A DNA stretch of 64,000 nt from Dictyostelium discoideum (lineage: Eukaryota), in the NCBI GenBank assembly GCA_000004695.1, contig CM000151.3, forward strand, positions 1,184,001-1,248,000, given 5' to 3'. The notes below the pieces were generated by a model that did not search any database, was not told where the DNA came from, and saw only the letters and a list, made by a program, of their open reading frames with translations. Below, piece by piece: positions 24,908-31,418 of this stretch. Every line of letters starts with the position of its first letter. The first letter of the stretch is position 1. Made by a program: the position numbers and the translations under genes.

Positions 24908-25396
24908 AAATTAAAAAAAAAAGAATATGATAAAAAATAAATTGTTTATTTGATGATAGTAATTCATTATTATCACTAATATGAATTATACATTTAAATT
25001 AATATCATAAATTTTTTTTTTTTTTTTTTTATAAAAAAAGACATTTCCCCAAGATTTATTTCAAAACAAAAAAACCAGAAAATGTCTTTTTTTAATTTAT
25101 GGTTAATGCTTTCTCAAATAATTGAGCACAAAGACTTTAAAAAGCCGGTGCCTTCATGACAAACCATGGTCATGATCCTACTAAATGGTCAATTTAATCA
25201 ATATTTAATATAAAATAAATGAAATAAAAAAATGCAAAACATAAATATAAATAAGTAAATAAAAGACATAAATAAAACAAATATTTATTCCATAACTTGT
25301 ATATCTCATTCCATGTTTTTTTAATTTCTTTTTAAAAAGGTTTTTATTTTTTAGTTTATTTATTTATTTTTTATTTTTTATTTTTTTTTAAAAGTG

Positions 25397-28729: not shown

Positions 28730-29295
28730 TGTGAAATTTGAAAATAAAAAATAAAAAAAAAAAATAAAAAAAAAAAAAAAAATAAAAATAAAAAAAATTA
28801 TTTTCAAAAACAATTTATTTATTTTTTTTATTAATATTTTTATTATTATAATTTAAACCGCTTTTTTAAATATCTATAGAATCTTGATTTTAAGTTGGAA
28901 TTGGTTCATTTTTTTTTTTTTTTTTATTTATTTATTTCATAAAGTCCAACATTCCATAAAAAATTTTAAAAAAAAAAATGTTTTTTTTTTTTTTTGAACA
29001 GGTGGTAGAAAAAAAAAAAGAACTGTTATTTTTAAATTTTTTGTGGAGAGAAAATAAAAAAAAAAATAAATATAAATAAAAAAATAAAACGCTGTTTCAA
29101 TTTTTTTTTATTTTTTTGTTTGGTTTAAACAATGAATTTTTTTTATTATTTTTTATTTTGTTGTTTGATTTTAATTTGATTTATTTCATCTTATTTTTAT
29201 TTGTTTATTTATTTATTTTGAAATAAAAAAAAATAAAAAAAAAAAATTTTATTATATATTAAAATTTTGAAATTTTAAAATTAAAATTTCTGTTA

Positions 29296-29790
29296 CATTG
29301 GACCTATCTATGAATTAATTATAAGTAACTCTACATTTTTTAAAAAGATCGAGTTATCTGGGAATAAATCGAATTGTTTCAAAAAAAGTTTTTTTTTTTT
29401 TTTAATATAATGAATGACTTAAAAAACAAAATTTTTAAATAATATCAAACAATATTTGTTAAGACCTATTGTAGAATTAAATTTAGAATGTAATTATAGA
29501 GAAATAAATAAAATATAAAAAAATGAACTTTGAAAAAAAAAGAAATTTCAAAAAAAACAAAACAATTTTGTTTGAATACATAAAAAAAATATACAATTGT
29601 GAATAAATCATAAAATTGAAAAATAAAAAATAATATGGCCAATGAAATTTTTTTCGATAAATACAGCTTTTCCCGAATAACTCGATCTTTTCCCGAATAA
29701 CTCTATCTTTTCCCGAATAACTCGATCTTTTTCAAAAAAAAATTTTTTTTTTTCAAGATTAATTCAATTATTCACTGATAGGTCTTTTGT
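29296..29790. mobile_element. MITE-like non-autonomous element (~0.5 kb) with nested terminal inverted repeats
   Basis: The outer TIR is ggacctatctatgaattaatt (29297..) against aattaattcaattattcactgataggtc (..29790). The inner inverted pair is aaaagatcgagttatctgggaa (29346..) against 3.5 tandem copies of a 20-bp unit cccgaataactcgatctttt (29650..29725). The sequence is GC-richer than its flanks and has no ORF. Confidence 0.35.
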
Positions 29791-30215
29791 TGGGTATTTA
29801 TTTAATTTAGAAATTAAAAATTAGTAAAATTAATAAAAAGAAGATTTTTTTTTAAAAAATCTACAAAGGTTGAGTCAAAAATATAAAAAAATAAAAAAAA
29901 ATAAAAAACCATAAAATTTTAAAAAAAGATATTTTTTGTATAAAATAAAAAACAGATTTTTTTTTTTTTTGATATTTTCCAATGATGATGTAATTTAAAA
30001 TTAAAAAAGATATTTTTTTTAAAAAAAAAAATCTCAGTAAAAAAAGTCATAGATTTTTTTGTTTTTTCCAAAAAAAAAAAATAAACTTGAATATTAAGGG
30101 AAAACTAAATAAAATGAAAATCCATTAAAAAATAAGTTTAGGATATGAGTAGAAATTAATTAATCAATTTTAATAGAAAAAAACTTTTTTACTAGAATGT
30201 ATTAAAATAAAAAGT

Positions 30216-31418
30216 TTATTCATTTTGAATTATGTACAGGCCACGGTCATTAATTTGATTTATTGATTTAACATCAAGAGGATGTTTAAAGGAAGGGGAA
30301 CGACCCACAAATGAAACAGTGTTTGGGATAGAATCTTTTTCAAGTGGTTGAACTATATTATAGAAAAACACCTCTTTAACTGATTTTGGAATTATTCCCT
30401 TTGTAATTTTTTGACTAAATCCATCACAAAAGAAGAGTGTATCTACAGTTTCAGGAATTGAAGCCTCAGTCAATTGAAGACCAATGTTAAAAAGGTAAAG
30501 TGATCTAACAGTTTTTGGTAATGATATTAATGATTGATTAAATCCATTGGGCAATAATAATCTTTTGGTTGATTTTGGCATGGTTTTAGGTAGACGCTGT
30601 CCCTCTCCAATTGCAAGAGATTCTGTATCATCTGGTATACTATCACCATCATTGTAAACTGTAAATATAAATTTACCCCATCTGTATCTTGACAACTGTT
30701 TTAGAGGTGAATGTTCATTAGTAGGAGGCAATTGTCCATGGTATTTATCAATACTAATTATTAAATTAAACAAATCTTTAATTGAATTAAATGATGACTC
30801 TGAAATGGTAACCTTTGAACTTGAATAATCTGGCAAATCACTAAAATGACATGTCAAAATCTTTTTACTTTGATATGAATCTTTAATGATTTGAATGTGT
30901 TTATCATTTAAATTTTGGCTTTCATCAATGAAATTATAATCATTTTTTAGACTTATTACTTTTGATAAAACTTTTAATTCTTCCTTGACTTTTGTGTTGA
31001 AAACATCATTAATATCAGTATTTTCATCTAAATTTGTAATTAATTGTTGATTTAAATTATTTTCAACAGTTTGCAAAATTGTATGTAATTTCATAATTTG
31101 GCCACTGATAATTTGTAAATTTGATTTATGTTTTTCTTTAATTTCTTCATATTTTGTTAAATTACCTTTAAGTAAATCTTGATTGTTTTTTATTAATTCA
31201 TCAATTTTTGGTATTGTTTTTTCATTCATTTCTTTTAAAATTGGTAAAACACTTTCATCATCGATTTCTATAATATCATGACCAAAGTGAATACCCTTTA
31301 AAACCACACACTTATTGCAAGCAGGTGAAAATTTACATGAAGTGCAAATAAATGTTATTTCCTGTGTTGAATGAATGAGACAAAATGTATTTTGTTCATT
31401 TTCAACTTCTTTATTCAT
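30216..31418 (-). CDS. B-box zinc-finger + FNIP-repeat protein (400 aa), single exon
   Basis: A real ATG is at 31418. The N-terminal B-box-like cluster is FCLIHSTQEITFICTSCKFSPACNKCVVLKGIHFGH. The C-terminal FNIP repeats include LPKTVRSLYLFNIGLQL, IPETVDTLFFCDGFSQKITKGIIPKSVKEVFFYN and IPNTVSFVG. Confidence 0.8.
   Translation of the reverse strand: MNKEVENEQNTFCLIHSTQEITFICTSCKFSPACNKCVVLKGIHFGHDIIEIDDESVLPILKEMNEKTIPKIDELIKNNQDLLKGNLTKYEEIKEKHKSNLQIISGQIMKLHTILQTVENNLNQQLITNLDENTDINDVFNTKVKEELKVLSKVISLKNDYNFIDESQNLNDKHIQIIKDSYQSKKILTCHFSDLPDYSSSKVTISESSFNSIKDLFNLIISIDKYHGQLPPTNEHSPLKQLSRYRWGKFIFTVYNDGDSIPDDTESLAIGEGQRLPKTMPKSTKRLLLPNGFNQSLISLPKTVRSLYLFNIGLQLTEASIPETVDTLFFCDGFSQKITKGIIPKSVKEVFFYNIVQPLEKDSIPNTVSFVGRSPSFKHPLDVKSINQINDRGLYIIQNE

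Follow-up and report, generated by a model that had tools for sequence, protein, structure and literature searches.

The window analysed here is a 64-kb stretch of Dictyostelium discoideum AX4 DNA with an overall GC content of about 23%. At 30216-31418, on the minus strand, it contains an ORF of 400 aa that is identical to DDB_G0272072, an FNIP/B-box protein encoded on chromosome 2. A spacer of 1.5 kb separates the 3′ end of this gene from the 5′ end of a TRAF-like gene, also located on the minus strand, whose start codon lies at about 28731 (position taken from the annotation of locus L001, see below). Within this spacer, at 570-1050 bp upstream from the start of the TRAF-like coding sequence, we found a block of 484 bp (29301..29784, not assigned to either strand) that begins with GACCTATC, ends in GATAGGTC, has a GC content of 19.8% and is non-coding. 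An earlier note on this DNA, made from the sequence alone, had placed a MITE-like element at 29296-29790; the features that it described are all present and only its coordinates were slightly off.

To compare the spacer between species, syntenic regions were taken from other assemblies by way of the neighbouring proteins. These regions come from a second D. discoideum assembly, GCA_054883475.1 (loci L001 and L005), from two divergent assemblies labelled 'D. discoideum', which are the nearest relatives (L002 and L006), from D. cf. discoideum GCA_054859235.1 (L003, a locus of 21 kb) and from D. citrinum (L004). In the last two species, the FNIP gene and the TRAF-like gene are separated by a second FNIP-repeat gene (FNIP2). 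FNIP2 has been lost in AX4, L002 and L006, as seen when window positions 28980-29300 are compared with L003 11634-13253 and L004 11746-12975, and the element now occupies the former upstream spacer of the lost gene.

Structure of the element

The 8-bp tips GACCTATC (29301-29308) and GATAGGTC (29777-29784) occur only once each in the 64-kb window. They close an imperfect inverted repeat, the left arm of which (29301..29366, plus strand) comprises the perfect 8-bp GACCTATC, a TGAAT..TAAT sequence, a run of T and an inverted 20-mer, and the right arm of which (29708..29784, minus strand) terminates in GATAGGTC. When 29301-29366 was aligned with the reverse complement of 29708-29784, 55 of the 80 columns matched over arms of about 66 and 77 nt, giving a score of 31. 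The maximum reached by 3418 control segments of the window was 16.5, and shuffled sequences scored 0.7 ± 3.4 in the same comparison. The inverted termini claimed in the earlier note, which might have sunk into the background of shuffled AT-rich sequence, are therefore present. The nested arrangement of terminal and sub-terminal repeats that it had described was confirmed by the inverted-repeat and 20-mer analyses, and what had been regarded as a 'TIR' and a 'sub-terminal repeat' is a single long imperfect inverted repeat.

The 20-mer TTCCCGAATAACTCGATCTT is found on the plus strand at 29670, 29690 (with one mismatch) and 29710, and a degenerate fourth copy, with about 15 of the 20 positions identical by hand count on the alignment, precedes them. 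Together these units form a tandem array at 29650..29729 (plus strand), of which TRF recovers 29667-29731 as 3.2 copies of period 20 with 95% matches. The array had been proposed as a unit repeated 3.5 times at 29650..29725; it is real, and its end has been moved by a few nucleotides. The reverse complement of the unit that had been noticed near the left end was also borne out, as a single inverted copy, TTCCCAGATAACTCGATCTT, at 29345..29364 on the minus strand with two mismatches. No 20-mer matches (0) were expected from shuffles.

Two further repeats had been overlooked. The first is a direct repeat (85%) between 29362-29400 and 29715-29753. According to the repeat analysis, its left member (29362..29400, plus strand) is a diverged direct copy of the 20-bp unit followed by an A7-G-T15 tract, and it makes a small palindrome with the inverted 20-mer. 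This left unit with its A7-G-T15 tract mirrors the last right-hand unit, which is accompanied by A9-T11, a palindromic tract at 29734..29753 (plus strand) between the array and the right terminus. The second is an additional copy of the terminal motif, the third in all, which is located internally (GACCTATTGTAGAATTAAAT, 29463..29482, plus strand). It falls within the best-conserved stretch of the AT-rich core of the element, which we call X (29384..29645, plus strand). The core has 14% GC, the end modules 25-27% and the flanking spacer 12-14%, so that the description of the block as relatively GC-rich applies to its end modules and fails for the core and for the element as a whole. A panhandle fold is predicted on both strands of the element, with a z of about -3.

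In agreement with the earlier description of the block as non-coding, the longest ORF of the element is a low-complexity sequence of 58 aa, and none of its ORFs has a Pfam match. An exact protein look-up of the 58-aa ORF, made to find other copies, gave no record. Rfam returned no match for the whole window at the gathering threshold and none for 29150-29950 at E≤1, a tRNA scan found none, and published D. discoideum miRNAs mapped neither to the window nor to any of the loci fetched.

An empty site in the outgroup species

The second D. discoideum assembly, GCA_054883475.1, carries the element with a single SNP difference. In D. cf. discoideum, where each flank was searched separately against the whole 21-kb locus, the best local match of the left flank (29231-29293) was L003 11721-11659 and that of the right flank (29798-29870) was L003 11656-11581. 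The flanks are thus 2 nt apart in D. cf. discoideum compared with 504 nt in the window. When the AX4 flanks were joined and aligned with L003 and L004 (three species), the alignment ran unbroken across the junction. Because the flanks are adjacent in D. cf. discoideum and the alignment is continuous in both outgroups, the TIR-bounded block was inserted as one unit. Measured against these two species, it forms a discrete insertion on the AX4 branch, and of the genomes examined only those of D. discoideum sensu stricto carry it. The insertion breakpoints lie a few nucleotides from the inverted termini and are resolved to within about 7-13 nt of the TIR tips.

Did the insertion duplicate its target? 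The flank alignments provide a candidate left target-site duplication, TTACATTG (29293..29300, plus strand), and a candidate right one, TTTTGTTG (29785..29792, plus strand), which are identical at 5 of 8 positions, with p ~0.1 at this base composition by our own calculation. The search for a flanking duplication that had been suggested for each copy yields, at this copy, only this degenerate pair. Between the anchors TTTCTR and RTATTT, AX4 has TTACATTG, the element and TTTTGTTG, and the outgroups have one stretch of 10-11 nt. Relative to the outgroups, the AX4 junction has about 6-7 extra nucleotides, which is compatible with a decayed target-site duplication of 5-8 bp. A longer flanking duplication of 35-45 bp (29196-29232 and 29786-29822) was also considered and found unconvincing, since 21 of 2824 control segments scored equally and the empty site aligned far better to the left copy.

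The two divergent assemblies, L002 and L006, were rejected as empty sites. In both of them about 700 bp, corresponding to window positions 29247-29946, is absent, with the element included (compared at about 11370-11309 in L002 and about 7350-7310 in L006). D. cf. discoideum, a more distant species, has kept part of the missing DNA (29815-29946), which indicates a deletion spanning the site and makes both loci uninformative on the element. The FNIP protein of these assemblies is 93% identical to that of AX4 and their spacers are 78-86% identical, a divergence that suggests cryptic species rather than strains.

A homologue of the core elsewhere in D. cf. discoideum

The 64-kb window contains no second copy of the element, and the related Dictyostelium loci L002-L007 (about 93 kb) contain no second complete copy. 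The core X, on the other hand, has a homologue at L003 17672-17365, with 82.8% identity over 174 nt (E 1e-43) and 81.8% over another 44 nt. One stretch of 55 nt is about 96% identical by hand count and contains the internal copy of the terminal motif. The homologue consists of the core only, without inverted ends and without 20-mers. It is located downstream of the TRAF-like gene, within an interval (L003 17056-18309) that is about 1 kb longer than the AX4 spacer 24909-25203 and has no significant similarity to it. Judged by synteny, the site is non-orthologous to that of the element.

The core in D. cf. discoideum lies between pieces of two further repeated units: a 5′-truncated copy of a unit of about 1.2 kb that encodes the C-terminal half of a TnpB/Fanzor-like protein (P0011, P0012 and P0015), and what is left of a functionally uncharacterised ORF (P0013 and P0014). 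The Fanzor-like half has the motifs INEDYTSQ, RCCKC and HRDDNAFGN, and P0015 matches Pfam PF07282 at 29.1 bits. In our view, the best reading of the D. cf. discoideum copy of X is that a fragment from the same element family has come to lie in a graveyard of transposons.

The interval itself is made up of three unrelated repeat fragments, namely the remnant of the P0013-like ORF, the X homologue and the Fanzor-like pseudogene. The TRAF-like gene is 1.25 kb away from the next gene in D. cf. discoideum compared with about 0.3 kb in AX4. The TRAF-like gene has different neighbours in D. citrinum and D. firmibasis, where it is followed by a TRAF/MATH gene and a gene for a mitochondrial carrier, so that this position looks like a synteny breakpoint.

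Searches beyond these loci gave no additional homologues. Comparison of the element with loci L019-L022 produced low-complexity matches only. A metagenome scan with a degenerate 20-mer returned 11 single matches, in contigs of 25-37% GC and with no extended homology, which we attribute to chance, and scans of prokaryote genomes and viruses with a conserved 22-mer of the core returned 0 matches. A full-text search of the literature for sub-sequences of the element also gave 0 matches, and our literature search found no paper describing Dictyostelium MITEs.

Discussion

What kind of sequence is the block at 29301-29784? Its inverted ends, the empty site in the outgroups, the lack of coding content and the presence of a core homologue elsewhere lead us to interpret it, with a probability of roughly two in three (0.68), as a class II (TIR) DNA transposon that is non-autonomous, either a MITE or an internally deleted form. 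The block is neither a gene nor a conserved regulator. The earlier note had also favoured a transposon, and this part of its reading is supported by the structure, by the discrete insertion and by the recurrence of the core at a non-orthologous site, whereas the designation of a strict, high-copy 'MITE' is unproven. Several observations weigh against a transposon: the absence of a clean target-site duplication (the best candidate being 5/8, p ~0.1), the fact that the D. cf. discoideum homologue is core-only, the uninformative state of the two nearest relatives, and the failure to find either a second complete copy in the 64-kb window and L002-L007 or an autonomous partner.

If the element is such a transposon, its history might be as follows. 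A transposase supplied in trans would recognise the 8-bp termini together with the 20-bp sub-terminal units, of which one inverted and one diverged would be used at the left end and three to four in tandem at the right. The enzyme would then pair the ends and excise the element by a cut and paste mechanism, and reinsertion would create a short duplication, probably of 5-8 bp. An insertion of this kind would have hit the spacer downstream of DDB_G0272072 on the branch that gave rise to D. discoideum AX4. At present, the element is probably immobile and neutral.

An alternative is that the block arose from a one-off, non-mobile event, in which filler or templated DNA was captured during the repair of a break, perhaps in the same rearrangement that removed FNIP2, and the palindromic organization was generated by local duplication and inversion. 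The spacer has indeed been remodelled, with the FNIP2 gene of D. cf. discoideum and D. citrinum missing in AX4; there is no clean target-site duplication; the core is the only part that recurs, and it does so in a patchwork of unrelated fragments; and the 64-kb window and the fetched loci yielded no further full copy. However, the breakpoints coincide with a highly significant inverted repeat, whose arms measure about 70 nt and whose 8-bp tips are perfect, which would be unexpected of random filler, and the 6-7 nt surplus at the AX4 junction also fits a decayed duplication. Taking these observations together, we regard a one-off insertion as unlikely.

A second possibility is that the element is composite, consisting of an inverted-repeat shell (29301-29388 and 29646-29784) with X as its cargo, where X would be a separate and possibly retroposed repeat. 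Several properties of X would agree with this. Its minus strand terminates in A15 in the window copy and in A16 in the D. cf. discoideum copy, as that of a retroposed sequence would; its boundaries are sharp in both species and fall at the inner edges of the end modules; the T15/T16 run marks one of these boundaries in both copies; and the D. cf. discoideum copy lacks the end modules. Nevertheless, oligo(dT)/oligo(dA) runs are ubiquitous in Dictyostelium spacers, and no target-site duplication is evident around X in either copy. Moreover, X holds a third copy of the terminal motif of the element, an argument for placing X in the family of the element itself. We therefore give the composite structure only a slim chance.

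With regard to a function for the host, the 20-mer does not appear to match the DUSE consensus, and its resemblances to STAT and E2F sites are partial and are treated as chance. That the block is a hairpin or small-RNA locus, or a set of 20-bp iterons acting as transcription-factor sites for the TRAF-like gene, is hardly credible: the stable predicted panhandle, T-runs like those preceding Dictyostelium transcription start sites (PMC6161686) and the position upstream of the TRAF-like start codon would suit such a role, but none of the other lineages examined has the block in its orthologous spacer, so that it is not a conserved regulator, and it matches no known RNA, with no Rfam hit at E≤1 and none of the published D. 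discoideum miRNAs mapping to it.

Coming back to a non-autonomous DNA transposon, the element resembles MITEs and internally deleted TIR transposons such as Ds-type hAT, dSpm/CACTA and P-element derivatives in that it is small and non-coding and has inverted termini. It also shares with this group short sub-terminal repeats in both orientations, unequal in number at the two ends as in Ds, dSpm and P derivatives, as well as an AT-rich interior, a position in a spacer beside a gene and the lack of the insertion in relatives. The termini as read here (GACCTATC) do not show the YARNG or CACTA signatures, and the target-site duplication is not clean. The comparison with hAT transposons, which are characterized by an 8-bp duplication and YARNG ends, yields a degenerate 8-bp candidate duplication and termini that read GACCT; an alternative start of the element, CAnnnGACCTATC, matches at 10 of 13 positions. 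As in foldback elements, the inverted ends are partly built of short tandem sub-repeats and a panhandle is predicted. In contrast to that class, the two arms account for only about 30% of its length, and sub-repeats in an array are confined to one side. We know of no autonomous element with termini that match.

The Tdd, DDT and thug families are class II elements of the same host. Tdd-4, with ITRs of 145 bp and 4-bp duplications, would not fit the flanks of the element (ATTG and TTTT). DNA transposons account for about 1.5% of the D. discoideum genome and their transposases are poorly understood (PMC5633606). The Tdd, DDT and thug transposases of D. discoideum are reported to resemble no known transposase (Glockner et al. 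2001, summarised in PMC5633606), and thug-S is a multicopy element with an intron (PMC4894637).

It is tempting to speculate that the element represents an uncharacterised DNA-transposon family of the D. discoideum complex, with a transposase that would recognise the 20-bp iteron (TTCCCGAATAACTCGATCTT) and with a core that is captured from, or shared with, debris containing Fanzor/TnpB sequences. We hold this to be quite doubtful; if it were true, the family would open a way to a transposase in a host in which the enzymes of DNA transposons reportedly resemble none known. A cleanly bounded element, an outgroup empty site and candidate iterons together would offer a handle for finding the autonomous partner, and the element would also help to date when DNA transposons were active in the D. 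discoideum complex. The very small space searched, which consisted of the transposon-like genes near the D. cf. discoideum homologue, yielded neither a transposase nor an autonomous partner.

The Fanzor-like fragment directly beside the core homologue recalls the chimeric Sola2-Fanzor1 transposons of social amoebae, which have short TIRs of 12-21 bp and a 4-bp AWWT target-site duplication (Bao & Jurka 2013, PMC3627910). Fanzor1 was earlier known from D. fasciculatum and P. pallidum and was not reported for the D. discoideum group in that study. Two differences separate our element from these transposons. The AWWT duplication is not seen at its flanks (ATTG and TTTT), and the Fanzor-like unit of about 1.2 kb, delimited by comparing L019 with L022, does not significantly match the element or its motifs. 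In both repeat units near the homologue, the Fanzor-like one (P0011, P0012 and P0015) and that of the ORF P0013/P0014, neither the GACCTAT motif nor the 20-mer nor any significant match to the element was found. A likeness between the 20-mer and an intron of the Fanzor-like gene was at background level, and X was not found beside the P0013-like ORF in L020 and L021, where it might have been the downstream flank of that ORF. Since the Fanzor-like unit is free of element motifs and X does not accompany the P0013-like ORF elsewhere, we rejected an origin of the element from either.

The copies of the Fanzor-like unit in D. cf. discoideum GCA_054859235.1 (L019 10029-11228, L022 5963-7206 and L003 17677-18169) are 88-93% alike, and their intron-containing gene encodes a product of 170-228 aa with a CxxC...CxxH zinc ribbon, for which we found neither a full-length relative nor an AX4 protein. 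A (TAA)n microsatellite of about 200 bp occupies the first intron of the copy in L019 (10300-10515). As to the other neighbour, a P0013-like ORF is present in a second D. cf. discoideum assembly, GCA_054859205.1 (L020, JBTAPH010000036.1, 1,555,059-1,575,523), in a cluster of short genes that also encodes proteins with Pox_VLTF3, deoxynucleoside kinase and YqaJ domains, and this cluster looks like an integrated virus-like or Polinton-like island.
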